Source: Polyangium spumosum (lineage in GTDB: Bacteria > Myxococcota_A > Polyangia > Polyangiales > Polyangiaceae). Taken from it: a stretch of DNA of 64,000 bases. Positions 6,135 to 32,011 of this stretch are shown here, one piece after another. The notes under the pieces were generated by a model. The model ran no database searches and was not told the origin of the DNA. It saw only the letters and a list, made by a program, of their open reading frames with translations. The stretch spans positions 224,685-288,684 of the forward strand of contig NZ_WJIE01000009.1 of assembly GCF_009649845.1 (NCBI RefSeq), in the 5' to 3' direction. How positions within the stretch are numbered: the first letter of the stretch is position 1; each line of letters starts with the position of its first letter. A program made the position numbers and the translations under genes.

Positions 6135-9100
6135 CTACGCCGCCCCGAGCAACGTGAGCACGGCCGTCTCGCCGAACTGCTCCCGCGCCAGCCGGGCGGC
6201 CTCCGCGTTCGACGGCACCTCGCGCAAGAGGCGCGTTTGTCCCTCCGGATCACGCACGTCCGCGCACTGCTCGCCGAGCAGCCCGAGCGCCGCGCGGAGC
6301 TCGTCCTCGAACGCGCCGACCTCGCCCGCGGCCCGCAGCGCCTCCGCCGCCGCGAGGCGCAGGTCCACCTCGATCGCGCCCACGCCGCCCGCCGCGCGCA
6401 CCTCCACGAGCGCCGCGCGCGCGAGCGAGAGCGACTCCGCCCCCCGCCCGAGCCGCGTGAGGGCGCGGATCCGCGTCGCCGTCAGCGACAGGCGCCGGAG
6501 CCGCATCGGATCGACGAGCGCGAGCCCCCTGTCGACCTCCACGAGCGCCCGCGCCGCGTCGCCCTCCACGAGCGCCACCCGCGCCGCGATCCCCCACGCG
6601 AGCGCCACGTCGAACGGGTTGAGCCCCGCCTCCGCCACGAGCGCCTCCGCGAGCGCGCGCGCCTCCTTTTGCGCCTCCGGCGTCGACTGCTCGGCCAGGA
6701 ACAAAGCACGCGAGAGCCGCACCGCGGCCTTCGTGCGCCTGTCATCGAGCTCGATCGCGAGCGCCTCCGCCTCCACGAGCCGCGCGAGGGCCGCCTCGTG
6801 CTCCCCGAGCGCCACGAGCGCCTCGCCCGCGCGCGCCGCGCAGACCACCTGCATCCGCGCGTCCCCCGCGGCCTCGAACGCGCGCATCGCGTCCTCGATC
6901 CGCTCGAGCTGCGCGAGCGGATCGTGCTTCGCGCTCCGACCGTACTCGTACGCCGCGAGCCGCGCCCAGCCGTGCGCGCTCGGATCCACCGCGCCCGTCT
7001 GCTCCAGCGTCTCACGCATCCGCGCGAGCACCCGGCTCGACGCGCCCCGATCGAGCCGCACCGCGAGCAGGCAAAGCAGCCGCCCGAGGCACTCGGCGTA
7101 GGCCCCCAGCGCCTCGAGATCCGGCGAGAGCGCGAGCAGCTCGTCGAGGTGACCCGCGAAGGCCTCCACGCCCGCCCCGAGCCCCGCGAGGGTACAGACG
7201 AGCCCGAGCACCCGGCAAAACCACGTCGAGCCCTCCGGCAGGAGCGGCAGCGCCTCCGTCCCCCTCCGGCGCGCCTCGTCCCAGGCCCCGTTCCAGTACA
7301 GGACGGAGCACGCCATGCCACGCACGAGCCCGAGCTCGGCCCCCTCCGCGCCGAGCTCCTCGGCCTTCGCCGCGTGCAGGCGTGTCCCTTCGAGGTCGTT
7401 CCTTTCGAACGCCTCGCGCGCCGCTCGCACGTGCAGCACCCGCGCGCGCGCCGCGTCGCCGCCGCGTCGCCAGTGGTCGGCGAGGCTCTGCGCGTCGCTC
7501 TCGCCCGCGGCCTCCAGGAACAGCGCCGCGCGCGCGTGCCCCAGCGCGAGCTCCTCCTCGCCGAGCAGCCCGTACGCCGCCTCCCGCACGAGCACGTGCC
7601 GGAAGACGTACTCCACGTCCCCCGCGAGCCTGCTCGTCCGTTGCTTCTCCAGAAGCTCCGCCCGCGTCAGCGCCGCGAGCGCCTGATCCACCGACGCCTC
7701 GTGCCCCTGCCGATCCATCAGCGCCACGACGCCGCCGCGCCAGAAGCGCGCGCCGAAGAGGCTCGCCGCCACGAGCGCCCGGCGCGCCTCCGGCCCGAGC
7801 CTGCCGAGCCGCGCTTGCAGCATCACCAGGAGCGTCGCCGGCGGCGCGCCCTCCTCGCCGCCCGTCGCCCGCGCCGCCCGCGCGAGCTCCTCCAGGAACA
7901 GCGGGTTTCCCGCGGCGCGCTCCACGATCCGCTCCACCACCACGTCGCTCGCGCCCTGCCCGAGCGCCGCCCGCGCGAGCTCCTCGGCGTCGCGGCGCAC
8001 GAGCGGCGACAGCACCATCCGCTCCGCCCGATCGCCCCAGAGCCGCGGGTAGACGTCCTCGAGGTCCGGCCGCGCCAGCGCGAGCACGAAGAGCGGCTGG
8101 TCCGACAGCTCCACGAGCGCGCGCTCCACGAGCCGCACGCTCGGCGCGTCGCCGTGGTGCACGTCCTCCAGCGCCAGCACCACCGGCCGCTCCGCGCATA
8201 CGCCGCGCAGGTCGTCGAGCAACACGCGCTCGAGCTGCGCGCGTGTCGCCGCGCGCCCCTCGCTCGTCGTGAGCTCGGCGAGCCCGCGCCCCCGGAGCGC
8301 GTCCGCCAGCATCGTGTAGGCCGGCGCTCCCAGCGGATCGCTGTGACCCACGAGGAAAAGCACGCCGTCCTCGCGCGCCTCGAGCCTCGCGCGGAGCTCC
8401 TGCAAGAGCCGCGACTTGCCCATGCCCGGCGGCGCCACCACCACGACCGCCCGCGCGAGGGGCTCCTCCCGCGTCGCCTCGAACGCGCGCAGCAAGAGGT
8501 CGAGCTCGCGCTTTCGCCCGACGAACGGCAGGGTTTCTCCGGGCCGGACTGCCCGCGTGAGCTCCTCGCCGGCGAGCAGGATCCGCCCGCCCTCGCGCGC
8601 CGTCGGGAACCGCCCTCCGACGAGCCCCGCCGTCACGGCGTCGACGATCACCACCCCACGCGGCGTGTCCTCCGCCGCGAGGGCCTCCGCCGCTTGATCC
8701 ACGGCGCGCCCGATCGGCTGCTCCCCCGAGACGAACGCGGGCCCCGTCGCGAGCGCGATCGTCGCCCCTGGGGCGGCGGCCCGGATCACGAGCGCCGCGC
8801 GCGTGGCCGCCGTCGCTTGGTCCGTCGCGTCCCCGCCGAAACGCGCGAACGCCGCGACGAGGGTCCCGTCGGGCCTCTGGCCGCGCGAAAACGCCCCGTT
8901 TCGCGCGAGGATCGCCCCGATCTCCTCGGCGCCCGCGCCCTCCGGGAGCGAGAGCACGAGCACGCTCGAGAGCTCCTGCACGTCCCGCGCGAGGGTCGGG
9001 TAAAACGCCCCCTTGTGCGCCTCCAGATCGAGGTGCTCGGCGAGCCCTTCGAGGAGCGAGGCCGCGCTCGCCGGCCGCTCGGCCGGGTCTTTCCGCAGCA

Positions 9101-9869
9101 AGCTCTGCACGAGCGCCGCGACGGGCGGCGGCACCCCCGGGCGCGACGACAGGAGGCTCGGCGCCTCCGCGCTCAGGATCTTCGACATCACCAGCACCGG
9201 GTCCGTCGCGACGAACGGCGTCCGACCCGCGAGGCACTCGAACAGGATGCAGCCGAGCGAGAACATGTCCGAGGCCGGACCGACGGGCTCTTCGCTGCCC
9301 ACCTGCTCGGGCGACATGTACTCGGGCGTCCCGATCGGCCGACCCGCCGCGGTGATACCCGTCGACGAGCCCATCGGCCGCGCGATGCCGAGGTCCACGA
9401 TCGTCGCCTGGTCGATGTCTCCGCCGCGGAGGAGCACGTTCGAGGGTTTGAGGTCCCTGTGGACGATGCTCCTCGCGTGCAACGCGGCGAGCCCTTCGGT
9501 GATGCGCCGGAGCAGCAGCAAGGCCTCGCCCGTCGAGAGTGGCCCGCGCGCGAGCCGCTTTGCGAGGTCCTCGCCCTCCAGCCATTGCATCGCCAAAAAG
9601 TGCCGACCGTCCTCGTTCTGTCCGTGCGCCACGTACGAGACGACACGCGGATGCCGGATCAGGGACAGAATTCGTGCTTCCCGCGCGAAGCGCTCGGCGT
9701 CGACGGACGTCGCGTCCGTATGCAGGAGCTTCAGCGCGACCTCTTCGCCGGTCTCCTGATCACGCGCCCGGTAGACCTCGCCCATGCCGCCGCGGCCGGC
9801 GAGCGAGCGGACCACGAACCGCCGCGCGATCAGCGTTCCGGCGGGCAGGGGCTTGCTCCTCGGGGCCAT
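6135..9869 (-). CDS. PknK-like Ser/Thr protein kinase: kinase domain + nucleotide-cyclase-like region + AAA/STAND NTPase + TPR-like C-terminus (1244 aa)
   Basis: N-terminal Hanks kinase motifs: GRGGMGEVYRA, VALKLL, HRDLKPSNVLL, DLGIAR, GTPEYMSPE. A P-loop VAPPGMGKSRLL sits near residue 480. The remainder is a long Ala/Leu-rich helical repeat region. Confidence 0.9.
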   Translation of the reverse strand: MAPRSKPLPAGTLIARRFVVRSLAGRGGMGEVYRARDQETGEEVALKLLHTDATSVDAERFAREARILSLIRHPRVVSYVAHGQNEDGRHFLAMQWLEGEDLAKRLARGPLSTGEALLLLRRITEGLAALHARSIVHRDLKPSNVLLRGGDIDQATIVDLGIARPMGSSTGITAAGRPIGTPEYMSPEQVGSEEPVGPASDMFSLGCILFECLAGRTPFVATDPVLVMSKILSAEAPSLLSSRPGVPPPVAALVQSLLRKDPAERPASAASLLEGLAEHLDLEAHKGAFYPTLARDVQELSSVLVLSLPEGAGAEEIGAILARNGAFSRGQRPDGTLVAAFARFGGDATDQATAATRAALVIRAAAPGATIALATGPAFVSGEQPIGRAVDQAAEALAAEDTPRGVVIVDAVTAGLVGGRFPTAREGGRILLAGEELTRAVRPGETLPFVGRKRELDLLLRAFEATREEPLARAVVVVAPPGMGKSRLLQELRARLEAREDGVLFLVGHSDPLGAPAYTMLADALRGRGLAELTTSEGRAATRAQLERVLLDDLRGVCAERPVVLALEDVHHGDAPSVRLVERALVELSDQPLFVLALARPDLEDVYPRLWGDRAERMVLSPLVRRDAEELARAALGQGASDVVVERIVERAAGNPLFLEELARAARATGGEEGAPPATLLVMLQARLGRLGPEARRALVAASLFGARFWRGGVVALMDRQGHEASVDQALAALTRAELLEKQRTSRLAGDVEYVFRHVLVREAAYGLLGEEELALGHARAALFLEAAGESDAQSLADHWRRGGDAARARVLHVRAAREAFERNDLEGTRLHAAKAEELGAEGAELGLVRGMACSVLYWNGAWDEARRRGTEALPLLPEGSTWFCRVLGLVCTLAGLGAGVEAFAGHLDELLALSPDLEALGAYAECLGRLLCLLAVRLDRGASSRVLARMRETLEQTGAVDPSAHGWARLAAYEYGRSAKHDPLAQLERIEDAMRAFEAAGDARMQVVCAARAGEALVALGEHEAALARLVEAEALAIELDDRRTKAAVRLSRALFLAEQSTPEAQKEARALAEALVAEAGLNPFDVALAWGIAARVALVEGDAARALVEVDRGLALVDPMRLRRLSLTATRIRALTRLGRGAESLSLARAALVEVRAAGGVGAIEVDLRLAAAEALRAAGEVGAFEDELRAALGLLGEQCADVRDPEGQTRLLREVPSNAEAARLAREQFGETAVLTLLGAA

Positions 9870-10587: not shown

Positions 10588-12171
10588 ATGCCGGACGACA
10601 TGCTGATCTCGTATCCGAGGCGCGGGTGGCTCGTGGCTCTCCTCGTCGCGCTGGGCTCTTTTGCGGCGGGCGCGGGCCCCGCGTCGGCCCAGGAAGCCGC
10701 GGCCGCGCCGCCGATCGAGCCTGCCCCGATCCCGCCGCCGCCCGTCGAGGTCGCGACGGAGGAGCCACCGCCGCCGCCTCCTCCGCCTCCGCCGTACGTG
10801 CCGCCGCCTCCGCCGTACAGGCCGCCGCCTCTGCCGCCCAAGCCGAACCGCTGGTATTTCCTCCAGCCGGGCGTCTTTCCCGAGGCGGACCTCTTCGCGG
10901 GCATCGGGCAGCTCGGGCTCGTCACGCCCTCGGCGAAGCAATTTTACGGCGGCGTACAGGTGGGCCTCTTCGGCGCGACGGCCGAGCACTTCACGGGCCT
11001 CGCGCAGGTCGGCCTCGTGCACACCAACGCCGAGCGTGTCTTCCGGGGCGGCGTCGAGCTCACGCTCGGCAGGAACCTCGCGAAGGAGTTCTACGGCGGC
11101 GCGCAGGTCGCGCTCTACCGCAACGTCGTCAGCGATCTCTTCGTGGGCCTCGCGCAGGTCGCGGTCCTGCGCAACGACACGCGCCGCTTCGCCGGCCTCT
11201 TGCAGATGGGCGGGCGCAACGGGGCCGAGGCGTTCATCGGCGGCTTGCAGCTCGGCGCCTACAACGTCATCGGCGCCGGCCTCGACTGGGACGACGAATA
11301 CGGATACGGCGGCCGCCGCGGCGGCGGCGGGTTCGTCGGGGCATTGCAGATCGGCGCATACAACAAGATCGACCACGGGAATTTCTCGGGCCTCCTCCAG
11401 ATCGGCGGCGCCAATGCGGTGGAGGACGGCGCCTTCCGCGGCGTGGCCCAGGTCGGCCTCCTGAGCTACGTCGACGGCTCGTTTTACGGCGTCGGCCAGG
11501 TCGGCCTCCTGAACGGCGTCGACGAGTCGTTTCATGGGATCGGCCAGCTCGGCGCGGTGAACATCGCCGTCGACGATTTTTACGGCGTCTTCCAGGCCGG
11601 CGGCGCCAACGTGATCATCGAGGACGACTTCCACGGCGTCGGGCAATTCGGCCTCGCTTCGTACGTCGCCGAAGACTTTCGTGGCGTCCTGCAGACGAGC
11701 GCGATCTTCAACTACGTCGGCGAGGGCTTCGGCGGCGTCCTGCAGCTCGGCGGCATCTTCAACTACGTCGCCGACGATTTCCAGGGCGTCTTCCAGATCG
11801 GCGCCTTCAACGGCGTGCGCGAGGAGTTTTACGGCGTCTCGCAGATCGGCGTCGTGAACATGACCCGCGACGACCACGTCGGCGCGCAGCTCGGCGTGGT
11901 CAACATCGTCAAGGACCAGATCCACGGCCTCCAGGCCGGGTTCTTCTCGGGCGCCGACGAGGTCACGGGCGTGCAGCTCGGCGTGGCCAACGTGAGCAGT
12001 CGCCTCACGGGCACCTCGATGGGCCTCTACAACCGTACGAAACACGTCCGCGGGCTCCAGATAGGCCTCATCAACCAGACCGATCGCCTGCGTGGCGCGC
12101 AGATTGGCCTCATCAACCTCTCCAAGCAGGGCGGCCTCCGCTTCTTCCCCGTGCTGAACATCGGCCTCTGA
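10588..12171 (+). CDS. secreted repeat protein: signal peptide, poly-Pro stalk, ~25 tandem 16-20-aa repeats (F-x-G-[VL]-x-Q-[VIL]-G-x-x-N)
   Basis: Signal peptide RRGWLVALLVALGSFAAGAGPASAQE. A P10-containing linker follows (EEPPPPPPPPPPYVPPPPPYRPPPLPPKP). The repeats include FYGGVQVGLFGATAEH, FTGLAQVGLVHTNAER, FYGVGQVGLLNGVDES, RGLQIGLINQTDRL and RGAQIGLINLSKQ. The C-terminus is RFFPVLNIGL. Confidence 0.8.
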   Translation: MPDDMLISYPRRGWLVALLVALGSFAAGAGPASAQEAAAAPPIEPAPIPPPPVEVATEEPPPPPPPPPPYVPPPPPYRPPPLPPKPNRWYFLQPGVFPEADLFAGIGQLGLVTPSAKQFYGGVQVGLFGATAEHFTGLAQVGLVHTNAERVFRGGVELTLGRNLAKEFYGGAQVALYRNVVSDLFVGLAQVAVLRNDTRRFAGLLQMGGRNGAEAFIGGLQLGAYNVIGAGLDWDDEYGYGGRRGGGGFVGALQIGAYNKIDHGNFSGLLQIGGANAVEDGAFRGVAQVGLLSYVDGSFYGVGQVGLLNGVDESFHGIGQLGAVNIAVDDFYGVFQAGGANVIIEDDFHGVGQFGLASYVAEDFRGVLQTSAIFNYVGEGFGGVLQLGGIFNYVADDFQGVFQIGAFNGVREEFYGVSQIGVVNMTRDDHVGAQLGVVNIVKDQIHGLQAGFFSGADEVTGVQLGVANVSSRLTGTSMGLYNRTKHVRGLQIGLINQTDRLRGAQIGLINLSKQGGLRFFPVLNIGL

Positions 12172-12359: not shown

Positions 12360-13478
12360 ATGGCTCGACGTACACTTCTTTCGGCCTCGATGCTGGCCGC
12401 GATCCTCTCCGTGCCCGCCGCGTCTCACGCGCAGAACGTTGCCACCAAGCAATACGTGGACGTCGCCATTGCCGAGCCGCCAAAGCAGGACGGGCTCGAG
12501 ATCACCATGAAAAACGGCGCCACCTTCTCGCTCGTGGATACCCGCGACGTGGTCGGCGTCACCCCCAATGGCTCGACCTTCACCGTGGGCCTCAAGTTCG
12601 ACGGCGTGGCGACGTACCGGAGAGGCGGCCACGAGTGGCGCACGATGCTCGGCATCAACGAGGCGCTCACGAAGACGCCGGCCCTCGAAGACATCGTCAA
12701 GAGCGCCGACAATTTCAACGTGGAGAGCACCTATCTCTATTTCGTGCGCCCCTGGTTCGGCCCGTTCGCGCGCGTCACGCTGGGCACGCCGCTCTTCCGT
12801 GGCTTCGACGTCCGGCCCAACGACACGACGTACACGATCGCCCGCCTCTCCGGCGCGACCGAGACCGTCACCGCGCGGCGCCTCACGCTCACCGACCCCT
12901 TCCGTCCCCTCACGCTGAAGCAGACCATCGGCCCGTTCGCGCGCCCCGTCTCCGGCGATCGATTCAACCTGGAGACGCGCGTCGGCCTCGGCGGGTTGCA
13001 GACCTTCGCCGACGGGCAGCTCATCCTGAAGGACGACGCGGCCACGGCCGATCGCGTCGAGGTGCAGGAGCTCCGGGACGTGCTTCAGCTCGGCGTCGAG
13101 GGCTCGCTCGAGGTGTGGGGCGCGCTGAACGACAAGAAGATCGCCTACAAGCTCGGCGTCGGCGCGCTCATCCCGGCCTGGAACAACGACATGCCCGCGG
13201 CCGGAGAGGCCAAGAAGAGCGCGCTCTCGCTCACCAACCTGGACATCGGCGCGGCCATTTCGTTCAAGGTGGTCGAGTGGGCGACGCTCGATTACGAGCT
13301 CAAGCTCGTCCGCCAGCCCCAGCTCACCGAGCAATGGCAGATACGTAACGGAATGATGCTCACCCTCGGCCTCGGTTATTCCAGGAAGCCGCCTGCGCCG
13401 CCCGAGCCCGCGAAGCCCGCGGCCCCCGCCGCCGCGCCCGCCGCGCCCACGCCCGCTCCAGCGCCGGCCGCGAAATAG
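12360..13478 (+). CDS. secreted/outer-membrane-like hypothetical protein
   Basis: Signal peptide MARRTLLSASMLAAILSVPAASHAQ. Alternating amphipathic beta-strand patterns suggest a beta-barrel. The C-terminal tail is Pro/Ala-rich. Confidence 0.6.
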   Translation: MARRTLLSASMLAAILSVPAASHAQNVATKQYVDVAIAEPPKQDGLEITMKNGATFSLVDTRDVVGVTPNGSTFTVGLKFDGVATYRRGGHEWRTMLGINEALTKTPALEDIVKSADNFNVESTYLYFVRPWFGPFARVTLGTPLFRGFDVRPNDTTYTIARLSGATETVTARRLTLTDPFRPLTLKQTIGPFARPVSGDRFNLETRVGLGGLQTFADGQLILKDDAATADRVEVQELRDVLQLGVEGSLEVWGALNDKKIAYKLGVGALIPAWNNDMPAAGEAKKSALSLTNLDIGAAISFKVVEWATLDYELKLVRQPQLTEQWQIRNGMMLTLGLGYSRKPPAPPEPAKPAAPAAAPAAPTPAPAPAAK

Positions 13479-13525: not shown

Positions 13526-14854
13526 GTGCAAACCCCCACCCGTCCGGGCACATCTGCGAAGCAGTGGGCCATGATCGACGGGGGGGAAACATTGAACTCC
13601 AACAAATACATCGTCCTCATCGCGGCGCTGCTCGCGCCAGCGTGCGCGCCTGACGAGCCTTCCACGCAGCCGGCGGAAAAGTCTCTCCTCGACGCGCCTG
13701 TCGGGGGTTCGGGCATTCAATACCGCATGACCTCCACGATCGCCCCGGGGGTCGAATCCTATGGTTGTCGCCTCTTCCAGGTGCCTCCCGAGGGGCTCGT
13801 GATCCGGGGCCAAGACGTCGCGTTCGGCCCGGGCGGACACCACGTCCTCCTGTACCGGACCCCATATCGACAGGTTCCGTCCCACGATGAAGAGGGCGTC
13901 GCTGTCGACGCGCTCACGGAGCACGATTGCTCCGAGGGCGCGACCGCGCGCTGGAAGGTCGACGCCGTGCTGGGCGGCTCCGAGAGCTTCGGCAGCGTGG
14001 GGCTGCTCCATCGATTGCCCGATGGCGTGGGCCTCGTCGTGGAGCCGAACGTGGTGCTCGTGATGAGCACCCATTACCTCAACACCACGAGCGCCCCGCT
14101 CGAGGTCGACGCCCGCATCAACGTCTACACCATGCCTCCCGAGGATCTCCGGATCGAGGCCGGCCTCCTTTACATGGACAACCAGGCCCTGCGCGTCGCC
14201 CCCAACAGCGAGGCCACGGCGCGCATGCGTTGCCCCGTGCCCGACGACGTGCACGTGGTGAGCCTGCAATCGCACATGCACGCGCGGGGCGCCTCGTTCG
14301 AGGCCACGCTGCTGCCGCCCGCCGGCGCGGCCACGTCCATTTATTCGACGACGTCCTGGCAGGAGCCGCCCGTACGCGAGCTCGACCCGCCGCTGCTCCT
14401 GCCCCGGGGGAGCACCCTCGAGATCCGCTGCGATTTCCGGAGCGGCGAGAGCCGGCCCATCACGTGGGGCCTCTCCTCGAACGACGAGATGTGCCAGCTC
14501 ATCGGGCCGTACTTCCCGAAGAACCCCCATTTCGAGCGATGCGAGGACGAGAGCGGCGCGCCCGCCGCGACGTGGGTGGGCCACGGGAAGGCCGACGGCA
14601 CGGAGACGGCCGCTTGCCTGAAGCAGGCGGTGTCGACCGAGGAGGGGGAGGGGTACGCGTACAACGATTGCGTGCTCGGCGCCTGCCCGGCCATCGCGGC
14701 CGAGGTCTCGGCGCTCGTGCGTTGCCAGAAGGCGAGTCGGGCCGGGGCTTGCGCGAATACGTGCCAGGGCGAGAGCCCCGGCGATTGCGCGTCTTGCCTC
14801 GCGGGGGCCTGCGCCGCGGAGGAGCAGGCCATGTGCGGCGCGAATTGCCCGTGA
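13526..14854 (+). CDS. copper type II ascorbate-dependent monooxygenase-like (PHM/DBH fold) secreted lipoprotein with Cys-rich C-terminal tail
   Basis: Candidate CuH ligands: HH105/106 (GGHHVLLY) and H162 or H183. Candidate CuM ligands: H250-x-H252 (QSHMHARG) and M322 in an EMC motif (NDEMCQL). The spacings between ligands are 57-77, 67 and 70 residues, matching the PHM H107/H108, H172, H242/H244, M314 pattern. N-terminal signal with LLAPAC. The C-terminus has 11 Cys. Confidence 0.65.
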   Translation: MQTPTRPGTSAKQWAMIDGGETLNSNKYIVLIAALLAPACAPDEPSTQPAEKSLLDAPVGGSGIQYRMTSTIAPGVESYGCRLFQVPPEGLVIRGQDVAFGPGGHHVLLYRTPYRQVPSHDEEGVAVDALTEHDCSEGATARWKVDAVLGGSESFGSVGLLHRLPDGVGLVVEPNVVLVMSTHYLNTTSAPLEVDARINVYTMPPEDLRIEAGLLYMDNQALRVAPNSEATARMRCPVPDDVHVVSLQSHMHARGASFEATLLPPAGAATSIYSTTSWQEPPVRELDPPLLLPRGSTLEIRCDFRSGESRPITWGLSSNDEMCQLIGPYFPKNPHFERCEDESGAPAATWVGHGKADGTETAACLKQAVSTEEGEGYAYNDCVLGACPAIAAEVSALVRCQKASRAGACANTCQGESPGDCASCLAGACAAEEQAMCGANCP

Positions 14855-14863
14855 CGTCTCGAG

Positions 14864-16333
14864 CTAGCGTTTCTTGACGCGCCCGACCGAGCCGTCGTAG
14901 TGGCCTTCCCTCCGGACGTAATACACGAAATAGAGCCACTGCTCGCCTTCCGCCGTACGGGCCAGGCTCGGCTCTCCGATGCCCACGATGTCGCCCGGCC
15001 CGTCGGGGGGCGCGTCGAGCCCGAGCGCGACCACGGGATCCCCGAACGAGGCCGGGAGCGCCGGATCGCCACCCGAATACGCGCTCGCCGCGATGTCGCG
15101 GAAGCCGCGCGAGAAATAGAGGAGCGAACTGGCCTCGTCCACGAAGGGCTGGAACTCCTCGACGTCGGGCTCGCTGATCGCCGCGACGACCGTCTCGGAG
15201 AACGAAGCCCCCGGGAAGGCGCCCGAGGGCCTGGCCACGAAGATGTCCTTTTCCACCGGCCCCTCGGTGTCGAACCAGACGTGGCCGTGACCAAACGCGG
15301 GATTCGATTGAAAGGGCTCCATCGGCGTGAGCGGGAGCTGCGTCGCGGGGAAGGGATCGGCGATCAGGAAGTTGTTCACGAACGAATACTTCCCGAGGCT
15401 CACGGGCGCGCCGAGCGTGATGTCCGCGTGATAAAGATCGGGCGCCGTGTCCGGGCCGTGCAGCGGGTCGAACGCGAAGAGCACGGGCGCCGCGCCGCCC
15501 TCCGGCGCGCCGAGGAAGGTGAACCCGAACGGCGAATACGTGAAGCCATTCATGTCGATGGCGATCACGAAAGGCTCGGCGAACGACCCGTCCGGCTGCT
15601 TGCGGAATCCATACGCGGCCACGGGCGGCAAGGCGAAGAGCGCCTGCGCGACGCCGAGCTCGGGGATGGTGTGGTCGATCTCGGTCGGCGAGAGGATCCG
15701 TCCGGCGCCGGGCATGTCGGGCCGCTCGGGAGCGGCGTACGGGCCGCGCGTCGTATTACATTCGGTCGCGGCCGGACTCGCGGCCTCGCCCGTGCAGCCG
15801 GGCAGATCTTTCCCGCCGATGCAGCAGAGCAGGTCGGCTGGCGAATACGTGCTCACGATCAGCCATTGCCCGTCCGGGCTCACCTCCGCCGAGTCCTCCG
15901 TGCCCGCGGTATTGACGAGCCCGGGGACCCGCTCCGGCTGGCCCCACGCCGCGCCCACGAAGGGCAAGACGACCGCCGTCCTCTCGGCCGAGAGATCCGC
16001 GACCTTCGCGCGCACCACCACTTCCCCCGCGTCCCCCGCGGCGATCGAGGGTTTCACGGTGGCCCGGTACGTGCCATCCCCGACGTCTTCGGCCGCGTCC
16101 GCCGTACCCCCCTCGGCCGTGATTTCCACCGCGAGCCCGGGCACGGGTTTGCCGTCGCTCGACGTCACGCGCACGGTGACCTCGATGGGATGCGGCGCGG
16201 GCCCGTCCTGCCGCGCGAGCTCGAGGGCGAGCGACGCGGGCGAAAGGGCCGCGGGGTTCGAGGGATCCGCCTCCGAACCGCAGGCGGCGAGGGCGAAAGG
16301 GACGAGGAGCGCGAGAGTCCGTCGGTATCGCAT
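14864..16333 (-). CDS. hypothetical lipoprotein
   Basis: MRYRRTLALLVPFALAACGSEAD has a lipobox LAACG. An Ig-like N-terminal region is present (IEVTVRVTSSDGKPVPGLAVEITAEGG). A WLIVSTYSPADLLCCIGG segment suggests a beta-propeller-like fold. Confidence 0.6.
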   Translation of the reverse strand: MRYRRTLALLVPFALAACGSEADPSNPAALSPASLALELARQDGPAPHPIEVTVRVTSSDGKPVPGLAVEITAEGGTADAAEDVGDGTYRATVKPSIAAGDAGEVVVRAKVADLSAERTAVVLPFVGAAWGQPERVPGLVNTAGTEDSAEVSPDGQWLIVSTYSPADLLCCIGGKDLPGCTGEAASPAATECNTTRGPYAAPERPDMPGAGRILSPTEIDHTIPELGVAQALFALPPVAAYGFRKQPDGSFAEPFVIAIDMNGFTYSPFGFTFLGAPEGGAAPVLFAFDPLHGPDTAPDLYHADITLGAPVSLGKYSFVNNFLIADPFPATQLPLTPMEPFQSNPAFGHGHVWFDTEGPVEKDIFVARPSGAFPGASFSETVVAAISEPDVEEFQPFVDEASSLLYFSRGFRDIAASAYSGGDPALPASFGDPVVALGLDAPPDGPGDIVGIGEPSLARTAEGEQWLYFVYYVRREGHYDGSVGRVKKR

Positions 16334-24249: not shown

Positions 24250-27200
24250 TCATTTCGACCCCACCCGAACGAACGACCCCCCCGTCCGCCCGAACGTCTC
24301 CGGCGCGTACATCTCCTCGATCCGCGTCGGCGGCGCCACGAATCGACCCACGTGGGCCGCGCGGGCGAGGTACCGATATCTCGAAATGCCCGCCGGCAAG
24401 GCGTCGATGAAATAAACGACGCGGTCGTCGCGCATTTCACGCCGCTCGGCCGGCGTCGCTTCGAGCTTCGCGAGCCAGGGGCCGCCCACGTCGCGGGCGA
24501 GGCGCAGCGGCTCGAGTCCGCCGGGGACCGGGTCTTCGAGGACGACGAAGCGGCGCGGCGCGGGCGTGACGACCTCGATCTCGCAGAGCACGACCTGCCC
24601 GGGATCAAACGCGGGCTCGCCGGAGAGAGGCGCGAGGACGGGGCCGCCGAGATCCGCGACGGGGCGGAAGGATTTTGTCACGTAAAACCCGGCGTCGAGC
24701 GGCTCGCGTGGCATGTCCTCGCGAGCGTAGCGGAGGACGGCCTCGTAATGGAGGTGGCCCCGAGACGTGGCCTCGAAGGTGAGCGGCGCGCCGCGGCTGC
24801 GGAGGAGATCGGACATCGAGACGAAGGCCGTCCGGCGGAGTTTTCCGGATTCGCCGCCGAGGCGCGCGTCCGCGAGCAGGGTATCTCCGAGGAAGACCCG
24901 CGCCTGCACGGGATCGGCGGGGGCGGGGTTTTTCTTGCGGAACGCGTCGAGCGCGAGCAGCGCCCAGCCGGCCTCGTGGGTCGTGCGGTAGGCGCCGCCG
25001 GCCCGCGCGTCCACGATGCCACGCGCGAGGCGGGCGGCGAGCGGGTGCGCGGGGTTCGTCGCGACGATCGCGAGCAGCCCCGCGGCATCGGTGCGCACGC
25101 CGGAGTCGAAATCACGAAATGGGGAGGGCCTCTCGGACGCGGCCACGAGGTGCGCCGCGGGGCCGTCGATCCGCATATTGGTTTCGAGGTCGCGGAGGAG
25201 CTCGCGGGCGGCGTCCTCGCCGCCGTGGCCCGAGACGGCGAACGCGTGGAGCAGGAGGGCGCGGGCGAACGGAGACATCCGGGCGCGCTCGTCGAAGAGG
25301 GCGCGCATGCGGGGTTCGTCGGGCCGGCGGGCCATGGCGAGGACGTCGAGCGCGAACGCGGATCGTTCGAGCGAGGAAGGGTTTGCCGCGGCGAACGGGG
25401 CCGCGAGGGCATTCGCGAGGGAACGAGCGGCGCGGTCGAGGGTCGCCTCGGGGACGGGTAGGCCGCGGCGGCGCGCCTCGTCGAGGCCCCAGAGCGCATA
25501 CGCGGTGATGTAGGGGTCTCCCTCGGCCGAGCCGGGCCAGAGGCCGAAGCTGCCGTCCTTTTGTTGATGCGTGAGCAACCTGTCCACCGCGCCCCGGAGC
25601 GCGGCGTCGACCTCGCTGCCTTTTTGCGGTCCAGGTTGTCCGGGCACGAGAGGCACGCCGAGGGAATCGGCGAGGTCGCGCAGCGCGAGGAGCGGGACCA
25701 TGCGGCTCACGGTCTGCTCGGTGCAACCATGAGGGTATTCGACGAGCTGCTCGATGCCGCCGGCGAGGCCCGAGAGCGGGGTCGAGGCGAGCGAGATCGA
25801 GAGCCCACCCGTATCCGCGCGGATCCCGGCGAGGTCCCCGAGGCGCTCGGCGACGGCCGCGGACGTCTCGCCGGTGAGGGCCGCGGTTTCGAGCGTCGTG
25901 GGCACGGAAATGTCCCTTTTGAGGTCGACGCCGTCGGTCTCCGGGCGGCCGCTCTCCTTCAATCGCGCCTCGAACGAGAGGTGGGCCTCTCCGGCGCGCT
26001 CGGCGCGGAAGGGAAAACGCAGGACGGCGGGTTCTTCGGGGTCGACCGTGGCCTCGCGGCGCATCGGGCCCGCAGGCGTGAGGCCGACTGCATTCGCGGT
26101 CACCACGGCCGAGCCGCGAGGGAGGTCGAGGGCGGAGAGGACGACGGAGGCCTCGAATCGATCTCCGGCGCGCAAAACCGCGGGGACGCTCGGGCGCGCC
26201 ATGAGGGGCTTCGAGGTGACGACCGTCTCGTCATCGGAGCCCGTGCGGTCGTCCTCGGTGACCGCGACGGCCATGAATCGATAAGCCGTGAGGCCGTCGG
26301 GCAAGGTGACGCGGCGCTTGACGCGGCCCGCGGCGTCCGTGACGAGGTCTGGCAAGAAAAACACCGTTTGTCGAAAATCGCCGCGGTGGGGGGCGACGCT
26401 GGTCGCGCCCATGCGGACCTGGGGCGGCTTCGCGCGGTGGCCCCCCGAGAAGGTGCGGAGGAGGTCGTGGCGCGCGTCTTTCGTCCAGACGCTCGGATAA
26501 CGTGTCGAATAGAGCGCAGCATGAGGCTCGGGCGTTCGGTACCACGTGAGCAAGAGCGAGCCCTCGTCCGCGGCCCACAACGTGATTTCGGCCCGCACGG
26601 GTTTGCCCGCGGCGTCTTTCGCGACGACCTCGACGTCGAGCGTCTCGCCGGGCGCCGCGTGGAGCTTGCTCGGGCGCACCTCGACGTCGAGCATGCGGGA
26701 CCGAGCGCTGACCTCGATGGACGCGCGCTGTGACTCGGATCGAGGGCCCGAGAGCGTGGTGACCGTCACGTCGGCGTTTGGCATCATGGAGAACGTGATC
26801 GGCACCTCGACGGTCGTCTTTTTGCCGTGTGGTTCGAGGGTCACGACACGCTGGTAGAGCAGGCCCTCGCGCTCCATCGTGAAGAGGGCCGGGCTCGGCT
26901 TCGAATGCGGAGATTCGACGACGAAGCGGGCGGTTTGTCCGACCCGATAGTCGCTTCGTTCGAGGCGCAGGACGAGCTCCGGCGGAAGGGGCTCGGGGGG
27001 CGGCGGCGGGGGCGGCGGAGGCGGTGGCGGAGGAGGCGGCGCCGAGGGGGCGGGCGTGGTCGTGGGCTCGAGACGAATTGAATAGGAGGCCGCGGCGCGG
27101 CGGCCTTTGCCGTCCCGGGTGGTGGCGCGGACGATGAGCTCCACCTCGTCGTCGGCCCCGACGCCGAGCGTCGGGACCTGGAACTCACAGGAGACCGGCG

Positions 27201-29835
27201 TGGGGCCGGTCGTGACGTCGCAGGCGCTGATCGGGTGGTCCTCGACGACGTTGTTCTCGCGGCGGATGCGGCGCGAGAATTCGACGTGGACCGGGAGCGC
27301 GCGTCGCTCTCCTTTCGGCGTCACCACGAGGACCCGGGGCGCGAGTTTGTCCCCCGGCTTCAGCCAGTATCGCTCCTCCTCGGCGAGCGCGACGAGCACG
27401 TCGGCGGGGTAGACCGTGGCGCTCGCCTCGGCATATCGGCTCTCCCGGTTGAGGTCCATGATCTCGACCTTGCAGGCGACCGACTCGACCGTCGTTTGGC
27501 CGGGCAATACGGCGGGGACCCCGAGCGAGAAGGCGCCCTTCCCGTCGAGCTTGCCCGTGCCCTGCGCGATCTGCGCCTCGGACACCCGCAGGTCGTGCTC
27601 GCTGAACACGTGATCGTCGAGGCCGGGGACCTGGGCCTCGGCCGAGCGGCGGGTCACGACGAAGGAGGCGCGGCCGCCGGCCATCGGGGCGCCGTAGAGC
27701 ATCTCGCCCCGCGCGGTGCAGGTCATCCGTTCACCAGGCTCGTAGACCGGTTTGTCGAGGCGCACGTCGGCCTTGCTCTCGACGGGGCGGTAATGGTCCA
27801 CCGAGAAGCCCCAGTAGATCTTCTCGCCGTCGAGCTCGACCTCGACTCGATAACGCCCGAGCGGGGCCTCCTCGGCGAGGGGCACGAGCGTGGAGAACGT
27901 GCCGAAGCGCGAGAGCACGTGCCGCGAGGTGGTGATAGGGCGGCGCTCGGGATCGAGGACCCGGAGCGTGATCTCGCGGCCGCTCGGCGTCATGAGGCCC
28001 GCCGTGACGGGGACGCGGAGGATCCCTTTGAGCTCCACGCGTTCGCCGGGCCGATAGATTCCGCGGGCGGAGAAGACGCGGCCGACGGGCTCGGGCGCGG
28101 GCGGGGCTTCGAGGGTCTGGTACATCCAATCGTCGCCGCTCCGCGCGACGAGGGCGAGCGTGCCCGAGGGTCGCCCCGCCGCTCGAGGGGGCAGGCGCAA
28201 GGGAATGGCCGCCAGGCCTTTTTCGTCCACCTCGGCCGCGCCGAGGAGCGCGGGCGCGCCGCCGCGAGGCACGTGGTGGATCTCGACCCGCGCGCCTCTC
28301 GAGGGCGACGCATTCGAGAGGCGCGTGAGCCAGACGAGCGCCTCGTCCGGGGCGATCTTCGTCAGCGGTCCGAGGTCTGTCAATTGCATTTCCCGCGTGA
28401 TCGTCCGGGGCGCCGCGCCGGGCGCGTCGCGATACGTGGCGCGGGCGAGCACGGGGCCGCTCTTCACGCCCGGGGGCAAGAGGTCCTCGACGACGAGGCG
28501 CGACCAATGGTCTTCGTTGCGTTTGCCCGCGGGGACCACGAAGCTCAGGGGAGCCGAGGGCGGCGGGAGCGGGATTTCATTGCCGGCGAGCCGCGCGAGG
28601 ACCCCGCTCGGGTCGAGGGGGACCATCGAGATCGACGTATCGATCGCGTTCGTCACGCCGATCGGCAAGACGCGTTTTTCGGGGATCCAGTACGTGCCCG
28701 TGGCGCCGAAGACGACCTCGGCGGGCAGATCGCCGAAACGGACCTCGCGCCGCTCGTCGCGGAGGGGCTGGCCGTGGATGTCCTGGGAGGCGCGGCCGGA
28801 GGCGCGGGCGCGGAGCTCGACACGATAGGTTTGTCCGGGATCGAAGTCGGCGTGCACCTGAAAGCTGCGGCTCGCGTCGCCGTCCTCGTAGGAGCCGTGG
28901 ACGGAGAGCGAGTCGGGGCGGGGATCGATGACGAGGGCGCGCTCGAGGACCTCGTCGGGCATGGGCGTCGCGAACGTGAGGGTGAGCGCGCGTTCGGTCG
29001 GATCGCAGCGGCCTTTTTCGACGGGGTGGGGGGGACAAACCAAAGAGGCGAGGCCGGCGGGGCCCAGGGTGCGGAATCGAATCTCCTCGGCCTTGCCCGC
29101 GGAGAGCTCACCCTCGGCGCCGCGGAGCGAGGCGTCGACGCGGACGCGGACGTCGGCGTCGCGCGGGAGCGGGGCGCGCGGGGAGAGGACGGCGCGATGG
29201 TCCTTCATCTCGGCGATCGAATACGCGACGGGGCGGCCTTTCGCCTCGATCGTGACGGCGCGCGAGAGCTCCGCGGCGCTGACGGGCTGCGTGAAAAACA
29301 GGGTGATCGTGGCGTCCGGGCGGATGCCGGTCGCGCCCTCGGCGGGCTCGCTGCCGGAGAGGGAGGGCCTCGGGGTCGAAAAAGAAAAGGCAAAGGGCTC
29401 GTCGAGGAGGCTGCCGTCGAGCGCGCGGGTGCCCGCGGGGACCTCGACACGAAAGGGCGTGGCGTGAGGCAATGGTTTTGCCGGGACGAACCGAAGCGCG
29501 GTCGAGCCGATCCAGGAGAAGGCCCCGGGGATCGCGGGGGTGAGGCGGACGGGGGCCTCGGGGGCGCGAGGATCCGATCCGAGCGCGCGTAGGGGTTTGT
29601 TGAAGACGATCGTGATCTCGGGGCGCTCGCCGGCCTCGCCGTTCGGGCCGGCGAAGACGACGCGCAGCGGGCCGGCCTCGGGCGCGCGCGGGGCGAGGGC
29701 CGGGCGAGGGGCGAGCTCGCCGCGGACGGGCGCCGAGGGCGGCCTGGGGGGGCGCGCGCCGGGCAAACAGGCCGCCGAGGCAGCGGCGAGGGCGACGAGC
29801 ACGGCGGCGGCAGGCGAGGGGCGACGCAGACGCAT
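24250..29835 (-). CDS. bacterial alpha-2-macroglobulin family lipoprotein (1861 aa, thioester-containing)
   Basis: Lipobox LAAASAACLPG. The thioester motif EYPHGCTEQTVSRMVPLLAL (CxEQ) lies in the TED region. The size and layout of the MG domains match the YfhM/ECAM class. An internal poly-Pro linker is present (APPPPPPPPPPPPPPPEP). Confidence 0.9.
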   Translation of the reverse strand: MRLRRPSPAAAVLVALAAASAACLPGARPPRPPSAPVRGELAPRPALAPRAPEAGPLRVVFAGPNGEAGERPEITIVFNKPLRALGSDPRAPEAPVRLTPAIPGAFSWIGSTALRFVPAKPLPHATPFRVEVPAGTRALDGSLLDEPFAFSFSTPRPSLSGSEPAEGATGIRPDATITLFFTQPVSAAELSRAVTIEAKGRPVAYSIAEMKDHRAVLSPRAPLPRDADVRVRVDASLRGAEGELSAGKAEEIRFRTLGPAGLASLVCPPHPVEKGRCDPTERALTLTFATPMPDEVLERALVIDPRPDSLSVHGSYEDGDASRSFQVHADFDPGQTYRVELRARASGRASQDIHGQPLRDERREVRFGDLPAEVVFGATGTYWIPEKRVLPIGVTNAIDTSISMVPLDPSGVLARLAGNEIPLPPPSAPLSFVVPAGKRNEDHWSRLVVEDLLPPGVKSGPVLARATYRDAPGAAPRTITREMQLTDLGPLTKIAPDEALVWLTRLSNASPSRGARVEIHHVPRGGAPALLGAAEVDEKGLAAIPLRLPPRAAGRPSGTLALVARSGDDWMYQTLEAPPAPEPVGRVFSARGIYRPGERVELKGILRVPVTAGLMTPSGREITLRVLDPERRPITTSRHVLSRFGTFSTLVPLAEEAPLGRYRVEVELDGEKIYWGFSVDHYRPVESKADVRLDKPVYEPGERMTCTARGEMLYGAPMAGGRASFVVTRRSAEAQVPGLDDHVFSEHDLRVSEAQIAQGTGKLDGKGAFSLGVPAVLPGQTTVESVACKVEIMDLNRESRYAEASATVYPADVLVALAEEERYWLKPGDKLAPRVLVVTPKGERRALPVHVEFSRRIRRENNVVEDHPISACDVTTGPTPVSCEFQVPTLGVGADDEVELIVRATTRDGKGRRAAASYSIRLEPTTTPAPSAPPPPPPPPPPPPPPPEPLPPELVLRLERSDYRVGQTARFVVESPHSKPSPALFTMEREGLLYQRVVTLEPHGKKTTVEVPITFSMMPNADVTVTTLSGPRSESQRASIEVSARSRMLDVEVRPSKLHAAPGETLDVEVVAKDAAGKPVRAEITLWAADEGSLLLTWYRTPEPHAALYSTRYPSVWTKDARHDLLRTFSGGHRAKPPQVRMGATSVAPHRGDFRQTVFFLPDLVTDAAGRVKRRVTLPDGLTAYRFMAVAVTEDDRTGSDDETVVTSKPLMARPSVPAVLRAGDRFEASVVLSALDLPRGSAVVTANAVGLTPAGPMRREATVDPEEPAVLRFPFRAERAGEAHLSFEARLKESGRPETDGVDLKRDISVPTTLETAALTGETSAAVAERLGDLAGIRADTGGLSISLASTPLSGLAGGIEQLVEYPHGCTEQTVSRMVPLLALRDLADSLGVPLVPGQPGPQKGSEVDAALRGAVDRLLTHQQKDGSFGLWPGSAEGDPYITAYALWGLDEARRRGLPVPEATLDRAARSLANALAAPFAAANPSSLERSAFALDVLAMARRPDEPRMRALFDERARMSPFARALLLHAFAVSGHGGEDAARELLRDLETNMRIDGPAAHLVAASERPSPFRDFDSGVRTDAAGLLAIVATNPAHPLAARLARGIVDARAGGAYRTTHEAGWALLALDAFRKKNPAPADPVQARVFLGDTLLADARLGGESGKLRRTAFVSMSDLLRSRGAPLTFEATSRGHLHYEAVLRYAREDMPREPLDAGFYVTKSFRPVADLGGPVLAPLSGEPAFDPGQVVLCEIEVVTPAPRRFVVLEDPVPGGLEPLRLARDVGGPWLAKLEATPAERREMRDDRVVYFIDALPAGISRYRYLARAAHVGRFVAPPTRIEEMYAPETFGRTGGSFVRVGSK

Positions 29836-30622: not shown

Positions 30623-32011
30623 ATGCGTTTCTCGCCTCTCGCCGATCCCCGCCTCGAGATCCTGGATTTGCTCGGTCACGCCGTGTGGATCACGGTCCCG
30701 GAGGAGGTCCGCATCGCGTGGGCGAACCACGCGGCCGTGGCCCTGTGGCGCGCCGCGGATCTCGACGAGCTCATCAACCGGGACCTGACGCCGTCGCCGA
30801 CGATGCGCGCGACCGTGCAGCAGCTACGGGACCGCGTGGCGCAAGGCGAGCGCTTCGGGGCGGAGCGGACGATCTATCCGAAGGGAGAGGTCGTCCGTGT
30901 CTACATGAGTTACGCGCCATTCCCGCTGCCGGACGGCCGCGTATGGCTCCTCGTCGAGGCGACCGAGCTCCGGGACGCGCTGGACCCCGAGGTGGTGCGC
31001 GCCGCGGAGGCCGTGCGGTATGCGCCGCTCGTGGTGACGACGCACGCGCTCGATGGCTCGCTCTTGCAGGCGAATACGCGGGCGCGTGAGACGTTCGGCA
31101 ATTCGTTTTCGTTCCAGGGGATCTTCGCCGAGCCCGGAGAGGGGGCGCGCGTGCTCGCAGAGGTCGCGGGAGGCGAGCCGTTCTTCGAGGACGTGGAGGT
31201 CGTGACGACCCAGGGGCGGCGGTGGTTCTCGGTGTCGGCGCGTCCCATCCCGGATCCGGTGACGGGCAACCCCGCCATTCTGGTGAGCGCGCACGATATG
31301 ACGGCGCGTATCGAGGCGGAGCGCGCGAAGGACGAGCTCGTGAGCGTGGTGAGCCACGAGCTGCGCACGCCGCTGACGGCGATCCGGGGCGCGATCGGGC
31401 TCGTCGTGGGGGGCGTCGCGGAGGCGGAGCCGGAGCTGCGCGTCGAGCTCTTGCAGATGGCGTCGGAGAACGTGCAGCGCCTCGGGCGGCTCGTGGACGA
31501 TCTGCTCGACGTACGAAAGCTCGCGGCGGGGGGCATTTCGTTGACGATGGCGGACACGGACCTCGCGGACGTGGTGCGGGGCGCCGTGGAGGCGCACGCG
31601 CCGGTGGCCCGCGCGAAGGACATCGCCGTGGAGACGGACGTGGCCGGGCCAATGCCGGTGTTCGTCGATCCGCAACGAATTCAGCAGGTGGTGCTCAATT
31701 TCCTGTCGAACGCGATCAAGCACTCGCCGGCCGGGGAGGTCGTGCACGTCCGCGCGCGCGTGATCCCGGAGGGGTTTCGCGTGGAGGTGGCGGATCGGGG
31801 GCCCGGGGTGCCGGCGGCATTTCGCGAGAAAATATTCCGGCGGTTCTCCCAGGCGGACGCGTCGAGCACGCGGAGCGTCGGCGGGACGGGGCTCGGGCTC
31901 TACATCGCGAAGACGATCGTGGTGATGCACGGCGGCCGCCTGGGATACGAGAACCAGGAGGCGGGGGGCGCGGTGTTCTTCTTCGAATTGCCCGCGAAGG
32001 CAGGCGATTAA
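30623..32011 (+). CDS. PAS sensor histidine kinase
   Basis: Two PAS-like regions, a HisKA H-box (LVSVVSHELRTPLTAIRGAIGLV), and an HATPase_c domain (GGTGLGLYIAKTIVVMHGGRLGYENQEAGGAVFFFELP). ATG at 30623 is preferred over the TTG at 30566. Confidence 0.85.
   Translation: MRFSPLADPRLEILDLLGHAVWITVPEEVRIAWANHAAVALWRAADLDELINRDLTPSPTMRATVQQLRDRVAQGERFGAERTIYPKGEVVRVYMSYAPFPLPDGRVWLLVEATELRDALDPEVVRAAEAVRYAPLVVTTHALDGSLLQANTRARETFGNSFSFQGIFAEPGEGARVLAEVAGGEPFFEDVEVVTTQGRRWFSVSARPIPDPVTGNPAILVSAHDMTARIEAERAKDELVSVVSHELRTPLTAIRGAIGLVVGGVAEAEPELRVELLQMASENVQRLGRLVDDLLDVRKLAAGGISLTMADTDLADVVRGAVEAHAPVARAKDIAVETDVAGPMPVFVDPQRIQQVVLNFLSNAIKHSPAGEVVHVRARVIPEGFRVEVADRGPGVPAAFREKIFRRFSQADASSTRSVGGTGLGLYIAKTIVVMHGGRLGYENQEAGGAVFFFELPAKAGD

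Follow-up and report, generated by a model that had tools for sequence, protein, structure and literature searches.

A predicted Polyangium spumosum lipoprotein with a PHM/DBH-type copper monooxygenase core and a family-specific Cys-rich helical domain

Peptidylglycine alpha-hydroxylating monooxygenase (PHM), dopamine beta-hydroxylase (DBH) and tyramine beta-monooxygenase (TBM) serve as textbook examples of non-coupled binuclear copper monooxygenases. Enzymes of this superfamily carry two Cu per chain, at sites that lie about 11 Å apart and face a cleft between two beta-sandwich domains, and they hydroxylate a C-H bond with the help of ascorbate and O2. In PHM, residues R240, Y318 and N316 hold the C-terminal carboxylate and the backbone of the peptide substrate. 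DBH carries an additional helical domain C-terminal to its core. To our knowledge, the characterised members of the PHM/DBH superfamily are all eukaryotic, and all mechanistic work on PHM, DBH and TBM has been done with ascorbate-dependent animal enzymes. We take the likeness to PHM of the myxothiazol off-loading domain to be one of reaction, not of family. This domain has been termed PHM-like (PMC9396620), and bacterial C-terminal amidation via glycine cleavage has been described for two non-copper enzymes, the alpha-KG/Fe enzyme MicC and the MNIO MovX (PMC12912966). The literature searched, outside whose coverage much subscription literature lies, contained no paper on a bacterial PHM/DBH-type enzyme and no report on the metal content or activity of any bacterial member. 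What databases already hold is an automatic family label: UniRef and NCBI entries named ‘Copper type II ascorbate-dependent monooxygenase C-terminal domain-containing protein’ (Sorangium cellulosum SOCE26_080930, Polyangium jinanense) belong to the same family as the protein described here. These labels rest solely on a match to the Pfam C-domain and say nothing of the N-domain, the complete set of ligands, the C-terminal tail or the predicted lipoprotein nature. To them we add a full two-site assignment, a predicted lipoprotein nature across the family, the lack of the PHM substrate-binding residues, an orphan helical domain that appears rich in disulfides, and a range within Polyangia that includes paralogues.

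The window, by which we mean the whole 64,000-nucleotide stretch of Polyangium spumosum DNA analysed, has a G+C content of about 70% and contains no paralogue of the gene elsewhere in its 64 kb. The product of the maximal ORF (Table 1) is 100% identical to a 420-aa P. spumosum protein in NCBI, which is named ‘hypothetical protein’ there and ‘monooxygenase’ in UniRef, and the codon bias of the ORF is host-like (GC3 0.86). In NCBI the 420-aa form begins with TTG 13592, preceded by a G-rich, SD-like run, and close orthologues begin at an ATG equivalent to 13571; the true start is probably one of these two, with the stretch upstream left untranslated. The mature protein is identical whichever start (GTG, ATG 13571 or TTG 13592) is used. 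No convincing promoter or terminator was found around the gene. Residues are given in the 442-residue numbering unless stated otherwise. It places His at 105, 106, 162, 183, 250 and 252, Met322 inside an E-M-C motif, and 18 Cys in total, 11 of them beyond residue 360 (364-441), in agreement with the 11-Cys tail reported in the first-pass annotation.

Table 1 Features of the gene and its predicted product in window coordinates.
Feature	Coordinates	Strand	Details
Maximal ORF of the PHM/DBH-like predicted lipoprotein	13526..14854	+	GTG to TGA, 442 codons
Predicted signal peptide ending in lipobox	13592..13645	+	L-A-P-A-C at 13631-13645
Pro/Glu/Ser-rich putative tether APDEPSTQPAEKSLLDAPVGGS	13646..13711	+	22 residues, lipid anchor to catalytic core
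N-terminal beta-sandwich domain, predicted CuH site	13712..14137	+	H105/H106 at 13838-13843, H183 at 14072-14074
C-terminal beta-sandwich domain, predicted CuM site	14147..14551	+	H250-M-H252 at 14273-14281, M322 (E-M-C) at 14486-14494
Family-specific Cys-rich helical domain	14567..14851	+	residues 348-442, ~95 aa, six helices

The Pfam model Cu2_monoox_C (PF03712) matched residues 237-341 of the window protein (E 1e-7, 32 bits, cut-off 23) and was matched in 29/29 homologues. The corresponding N-domain model, Cu2_monooxygen (PF01082), gave no significant match with the whole protein, the homologues or the isolated N-domain, and an NCBIfam search with the window protein gave no match. A phmmer search with the single sequence against PDB sequences returned nothing meaningful, and family profiles were needed. 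The profile of 29 homologues found DBH (9e-5) and PHM (3e-4) among PDB sequences, and a profile of 88 family representatives, a 24-41% identity set more diverse than the 29 sequences, found rat PHM with an E-value of 4e-17 and human DBH with 2e-13; its alignment to PHM runs from profile positions 38-309 against chain residues 19-293 and covers both domains. The profile-HMM check suggested beforehand was hence positive for the C-domain model and without significance for the N-domain model, yet the 88-member profile spans both domains. An AlphaFold2 model computed from the 29-sequence alignment (mean pLDDT 89.8, pTM 0.83) was laid out as two strand-rich domains followed by helices. The best 31 Foldseek matches of this model in the PDB were all PHM or DBH (E 1e-14 to 5e-11), with roughly 300 aligned columns and TM scores of 0.57-0.67 normalised to PHM, and the alignment covered about 300 of the 305 PHM residues across both domains. 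The next match was unrelated and had an E-value of 9e-5, roughly six orders of magnitude away. Two PROSITE-type signatures, which we take to read H-H-M-x2-F-x-C and H-x-F-x4-H-T-H-x2-G, did not match the window protein in their strict form, while relaxed forms matched with equal spacing at HHVLLYR and HVVSLQSHMHARG. Overall, the Pfam C-domain, the 88-member profile and Foldseek agree on the copper type II monooxygenase family that had been proposed from the sequence, and the best matches of the structural comparison were PHM and DBH exclusively, not a different fold. As judged from profiles and the predicted model, the assignment of the core as a two-domain PHM/DBH-type (copper type II) monooxygenase homologue is largely supported.

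Both parts of the superfamily’s metal-binding pattern were found, the H-x-H plus Met of CuM in the C-domain and, by profile and Foldseek alignment, the His pair plus third His of CuH in the N-domain. H105, H106, H183, H250, H252 and M322 were invariant in the 29-sequence alignment, and among the 88 relatives the CuM ligands H250, H252 and M322 were kept in 88/88 and each CuH His in 87/88. In the one exception, family member P0107, the three CuH histidines are missing as a set. This confirms H105/H106, H250-x-H252 and M322 in its EMC context as the putative ligand set and its conservation among orthologs. The third His had previously been placed at either 162 or 183; H162 lies in a variable, gappy stretch of the 29-sequence alignment and is not conserved, so that the third CuH ligand is assigned to H183 (87/88), which aligns with PHM H172. 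In the established ligand numbering of PHM and DBH, the family motif GSHHVLLY aligns with VHHMLLF of PHM (ligands H107/H108), vHy around H183 with QVHY (H172), SHMHRRG with VHTHHLG (H242/H244), and DEMC with DEMC in PHM (M314) and EEMC in DBH; DBH also has HTH at the HxH position of the profile alignment. The spacings in the window protein (77 from HH to H, 67 from H to HxH and 70 from HxH to M) compare with 64/70/70 in PHM and 70/79/73 in DBH; the first-pass annotation had described the spacings as matching the sites of these enzymes. Three Cys pairs of the core correspond to PHM disulfides, namely C81/C135 to C81-C126 (88/88), C302/C323 to C293-C315 (88/88) and C236/C339 to C227-C334 (84/88). 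From sequence comparison, we consider that the ligand pattern is not due to chance.

Compared to PHM, the catalytic core of PAM (rat PHMcc, PDB 1PHM/1SDW), the window protein has the same two beta-sandwich domains with aligned CuH and CuM ligands, the D-E-M-C motif, the three equivalent disulfide pairs and an HxH-to-Met spacing of 70, whereas its identity is only about 21%, R240, N316 and Y318 are not conserved and a PAL partner is missing. PHM is a secretory-granule protein, while the window protein is a predicted bacterial lipoprotein with an extra Cys-rich helical domain of ~95 aa. At the positions of PHM R240, N316 and Y318 the window protein carries Q248, Q324 and I326, and in the 88 relatives these positions are occupied by Q/A/V/L/S/I, M/V/I/L/A/S and I/A/V/F/L/T, respectively, so the substrate-binding residues that mark PHM proper (EC 1.14.17.3) are absent. 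No PAL domain is present in the window protein, and no NHL gene that could supply a PAL partner lies within ~8 kb in the window. The protein is therefore not a PHM orthologue. Because the carboxylate-holding residues are not conserved, the type of substrate cannot be transferred from PHM, and since the clamp residues are replaced by variable, mostly hydrophobic ones, a glycine-extended peptide C-terminus is probably not the substrate. The peptide or amine substrate suggested earlier, with glycine-extended peptides and tyramine as test compounds, is consequently unsupported. Similar to PHM, the enzymes of the DBH/tyramine beta-monooxygenase/MOXD1 group (human DBH, PDB 4ZEL) share the catalytic core and ligand set with the window protein, and DBH and the window protein both have Gln at the position of PHM R240 (SQxHxH). 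However, this Gln occurs in only 26/88 bacterial relatives, the identity to DBH is 15-16%, and the window protein has no N-terminal DOMON domain, only the signal peptide and the 22-residue tether preceding the first beta-strand. DBH is thus no better guide than PHM to the substrate of the window protein.

The N-terminus of the protein reads (M)NSNKYIVLIAALLAPAC and has the features of a lipoprotein signal, with Cys40 (Cys18 in the 420-aa form) as the predicted lipidated N-terminus. The lipobox Cys was kept in 88/88 family representatives, as was a residue A, G or S at -1; position -3 usually held L, A, V or I, and the Cys came after a median of 18 residues. Judged by the pattern [LVI][ASTVI][GAS]C, the site was accepted as a lipobox, the Pro at -2 of the window protein being atypical and seen in 3/88. 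The +2 residue is Ala in the window protein and S, G or A in most relatives, and no twin-arginine motif could be read in the signal peptide. The export signal with its LAPAC motif, as originally proposed, was confirmed, and predicted lipidation is, as read from these alignments, a property of the whole family. The Pro/Glu/Ser-rich stretch behind the Cys is read as a flexible tether: it varies in length and sequence across homologues, its first ~10 residues (19-28 in the 420-aa model) fall into a segment (14-28) with pLDDT below 50, and model confidence rises to ~84 by residues 31-40 of the same numbering. The protein might be placed in the outer membrane or on the surface of the cell.

The C-terminal helical domain was modelled confidently both within the full protein and alone (pLDDT 90.9 when alone). 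Pfam gave no match to the tail in any of 38 members, and a Foldseek search of the tail against the PDB found nothing significant (best E 4.8), with no detectable similarity to any PDB chain, that of DBH included. A search with a tail profile returned only two short fragments; this method needs shared 5-residue words and is hence uninformative on the mobility of the domain. When C339, which pairs into the catalytic domain, was excluded, the number of tail Cys was even (12, 10, 8 or 6) in 106 of 110 sequences. One Cys pair was absent as a pair from 20 sequences, and in no sequence was just one of its members missing (phi 1.0); this pair is lacking in the window protein and in its nearest relatives from Polyangium. 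C387/C441 (C365/C419 in the 420-aa numbering) showed joint loss in 17 sequences and one exception to it (phi 0.97), and loss within a four-Cys block was mostly joint over the 110 tails. These even counts and the pairwise co-loss indicate that the tail Cys form disulfides. For the 11 Cys of the window protein, five disulfides and one odd Cys (C437) are predicted; the odd count results from the retention of the shifted C437, which is probably unpaired. The sequence data support a disulfide-stabilised domain, consistent with an oxidising extracytoplasmic location, and its role may lie in stability, docking or substrate recognition. Given the CxxC and CxxxC spacings on its helices, we also considered a role of the tail in Csp-like Cu(I) storage. 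The even Cys counts and the paired losses spoke against it, as did the lack of any Csp among the fold matches, and the idea was rejected.

Searches with the family profile found 4990 clusters at E<=1e-3, of which 2168 remained at a cut-off of E<=1e-10 and 387 at one of E<=1e-30, counted at the 50% identity level with bacterial and eukaryotic sequences taken together. A second broad search, with the 88-sequence profile and a capped set of candidates, did not widen the taxonomic range. With numbers of this size, the statement that the family is uncommon in bacteria was overstated. The best 150 clusters were almost all proteins of ~400 aa that matched end to end, tail included. In data with one genome per species, a scan with patterns specific to this subfamily found 146 loci encoding a relative. 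The class Polyangia accounted for nearly all of the best 80 (Polyangium, Sorangium, Chondromyces, Byssovorax, Kofleriaceae, Haliangiales), with two to three paralogues in many genomes. Among named sequences, the family was thus found in the class Polyangia, and the 146 loci, the paralogues and the host-like GC3 mark it as old and established in its hosts.

Taken together, we consider it probable that the gene encodes an envelope-anchored two-copper monooxygenase of the PHM/DBH superfamily, likely acting on a non-peptidylglycine substrate and carrying an extra disulfide-stabilised helical domain. Copper binding, hydroxylase chemistry and envelope location would follow by analogy. Once cleaved by signal peptidase II and lipidated at Cys40, the enzyme would be held at an envelope membrane surface by a tether of ~20 residues. 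By homology, the CuH of the N-domain (H105, H106, H183; His3) would be the electron-transfer copper and the CuM of the C-domain (H250, H252, M322; His2Met) the O2-activating copper, two mononuclear coppers in separate domains. O2 bound to CuM would abstract hydrogen from a C-H bond of the substrate, leading to its hydroxylation, with the second electron coming from CuH. Both coppers would then be re-reduced by an external one-electron donor that delivers the two electrons singly. Myxobacteria are, as far as we know, not known to make ascorbate, and none of the present results supports a dependence on it. A more far-reaching reading, which we put forward tentatively and hold to be somewhat doubtful as a joint claim, is that a Polyangia lineage keeps and multiplies an envelope-anchored, non-coupled C-H hydroxylase that would combine an ascorbate-free periplasmic donor, a non-peptidylglycine substrate and a helical docking or recognition module. 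An envelope, matrix, signalling or prey-derived molecule would be the candidate substrate under this reading, and, if true, it would be the first prokaryotic PHM/DBH-class enzyme with its own substrate and redox partner.

An alternative explanation is that the protein is a true bacterial PHM that initiates the amidation of secreted peptides by hydroxylating their C-terminal glycine. PHM is indeed the best match in sequence and fold and has the identical HxH-to-Met spacing, and an SGL/NHL beta-propeller gene was found near one metagenomic locus, NHL propeller being the fold of the Zn lyase PAL. However, the positions of R240, N316 and Y318 are variable, the protein lacks a PAL domain, no adjacent NHL gene was seen in the window or at the other loci inspected, and the reported bacterial glycine-cleaving amidation enzymes, MicC and MovX, are not copper enzymes (PMC12912966), which makes this explanation unlikely. 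We give a similarly low probability to a copper-handling envelope lipoprotein that uses the PHM fold for sequestration, delivery or sensing and has no monooxygenase activity, possibly with its Cys-rich helices as a Csp-like Cu(I) store. The lipoprotein nature together with His/Met sites and the many helical Cys in CxxC and CxxxC spacing would fit, and the loss of the entire CuH site in P0107 indicates that a full two-site enzyme is not obligatory in the family. The parity and co-loss of the tail Cys, on the other hand, point to disulfides and run against the storage part of this idea.

That the gene was recently acquired from a eukaryote, or is an assembly contamination with no established bacterial role, might be suspected from the eukaryotic origin of all characterised superfamily members known to us. 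The identity of only ~21% to PHM, the host-typical GC3, the bacterial lipoprotein signal, the synteny with Polyangium sp. 6x1, and a family with wide distribution and paralogues throughout Polyangia (387 clusters at E<=1e-30) leave this very improbable and effectively refuted. Least probable of all is a coincidental His/Met pattern on another fold, such as a cupredoxin, a PNGase F-like domain or another jelly roll. The failure of the Pfam N-domain model to match would be in line with it, but the profile aligns ligand for ligand through both domains and the top 31 Foldseek matches were exclusively PHM and DBH, with the next E-value about six orders of magnitude higher, and we regard this reading as refuted.

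A bacterial member of ~400 aa with a complete ligand set would offer a genetically tractable system for the proposed two-copper monooxygenase. It would raise the question of which donor reduces the coppers in a setting in which no ascorbate is expected, and it might bring to light substrates of a class new to two-copper chemistry. Its value at present is that of a well-founded biochemistry target and not of a discovery in itself, and this value is limited because databases already assign the family automatically and the gene context gives no functional clue.

Neighbourhoods were compared by hand at six loci and by clustering of flanking ORFs at 80 genome loci. Upstream of the gene in the window lie an LA_2272-repeat surface protein gene (NCBIfam E 5e-27) and then ORF 12360-13478, whose product has a signal peptide and a sub-threshold match to DUF3078 (E 5e-4, 21 bits, cut-off 25). 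The outer-membrane-like gene said to directly precede the monooxygenase homologue is weakly supported by these two features. Downstream genes encode a dienelactone hydrolase, a BNR-repeat protein and an Ig-like lipoprotein, the last of which is convergent with our gene, so that the reported proximity to several other secreted enzymes is partly true. No PAL-like, cytochrome b561 or copper-homeostasis genes were found near the locus in the window. The arrangement is common to Polyangium sp. 6x1 and is not shared by P. aurulentum, Sorangium or metagenomic loci, and the genes found upstream in P. spumosum bear no relation to those in P. aurulentum. No conserved partner gene was found across the 80 loci beyond within-genus synteny. 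An operon or ‘tailoring cluster’ was considered and dropped, given that synteny was seen only within the genus at the six loci and in the 80-locus clustering. The proposed extracytoplasmic oxidative tailoring role likewise finds no backing from a conserved neighbour gene. Among the flanking-ORF clusters, one partner recurred in at most 17 loci, all of them showing the Sorangium pattern, in which the gene is flanked by those for a STAS/PAS/GAF protein, a TPR protein and an endonuclease-family protein.

The first-pass annotation placed the copper monooxygenase gene directly after an "outer-membrane-like" protein gene. That neighbour is the gene for the 372-aa protein, which has a signal peptide, a sub-threshold DUF3078 match and a Pro/Ala-rich C-terminal tail. 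P. aurulentum has a different, non-homologous gene ahead of its monooxygenase orthologue. The 527-aa protein encoded further 5' carries a Pro-rich stretch at its N-terminus and numerous FxGxxQxG-type repeats, and its counterpart in Polyangium sp. 6x1 likewise lies upstream of the monooxygenase gene. The name of the surface-repeat family that it matches otherwise comes from Leptospira. A kinase gene resembling that of the kinase-ATPase fusion was present at the matching position in Polyangium sp. 6x1 and, in P. aurulentum, close to the monooxygenase orthologue.

On the 3' side, the stop codons of the monooxygenase gene and the convergent lipoprotein gene are just 9 bp apart, and no terminator-like hairpin was found between them. 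Among the more distant genes, the MauG-type match of the 665-aa product is confined to its C-terminal half, the N-terminal ~350 aa being unassigned.

Genes in the window and at metagenomic locus L004
Position	Strand	Product	Length (aa)	Features
6135-9869	-	Ser/Thr protein kinase + AAA_16 (STAND-type) ATPase fusion	1244	
10588-12171	+	LA_2272-repeat secreted protein	527	NCBIfam LA_2272 surface-repeat family, E 5e-27
12360-13478	+	signal-peptide protein	372	DUF3078 below threshold, E 5e-4
14864-16333	-	lipoprotein, convergent with monooxygenase gene	489	LAACGS lipobox; Invasin_D3/Big_1 Ig-like domain
24250-29835	-	bacterial alpha-2-macroglobulin	1861	MG2, bait region, TED, bMG10 domains
32008-34005	-	di-haem cytochrome c peroxidase/MauG-domain protein	665	domain match E 7e-37
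L004 6278-7294 (JGI metagenome contig)	-	SGL/NHL-type beta-propeller		

The enzyme that partners PHM, PAL, is itself a propeller of the NHL type. At L004, a metagenomic locus encoding a family member, a propeller gene lies ~700 bp upstream of that member on the opposite strand. Among the loci inspected, this was the only one with a propeller gene beside a family member, and the pairing is therefore probably a coincidence.

In the alignment of 88 family representatives, a single protein (P0107; 397 aa, from a Polyangiales MAG, outside the window) had lost all three CuH histidines, which are replaced by Q, Y and R, with the CuM H-x-H/Met set retained. P0107 is possibly a paralogue with one copper or without catalytic activity.
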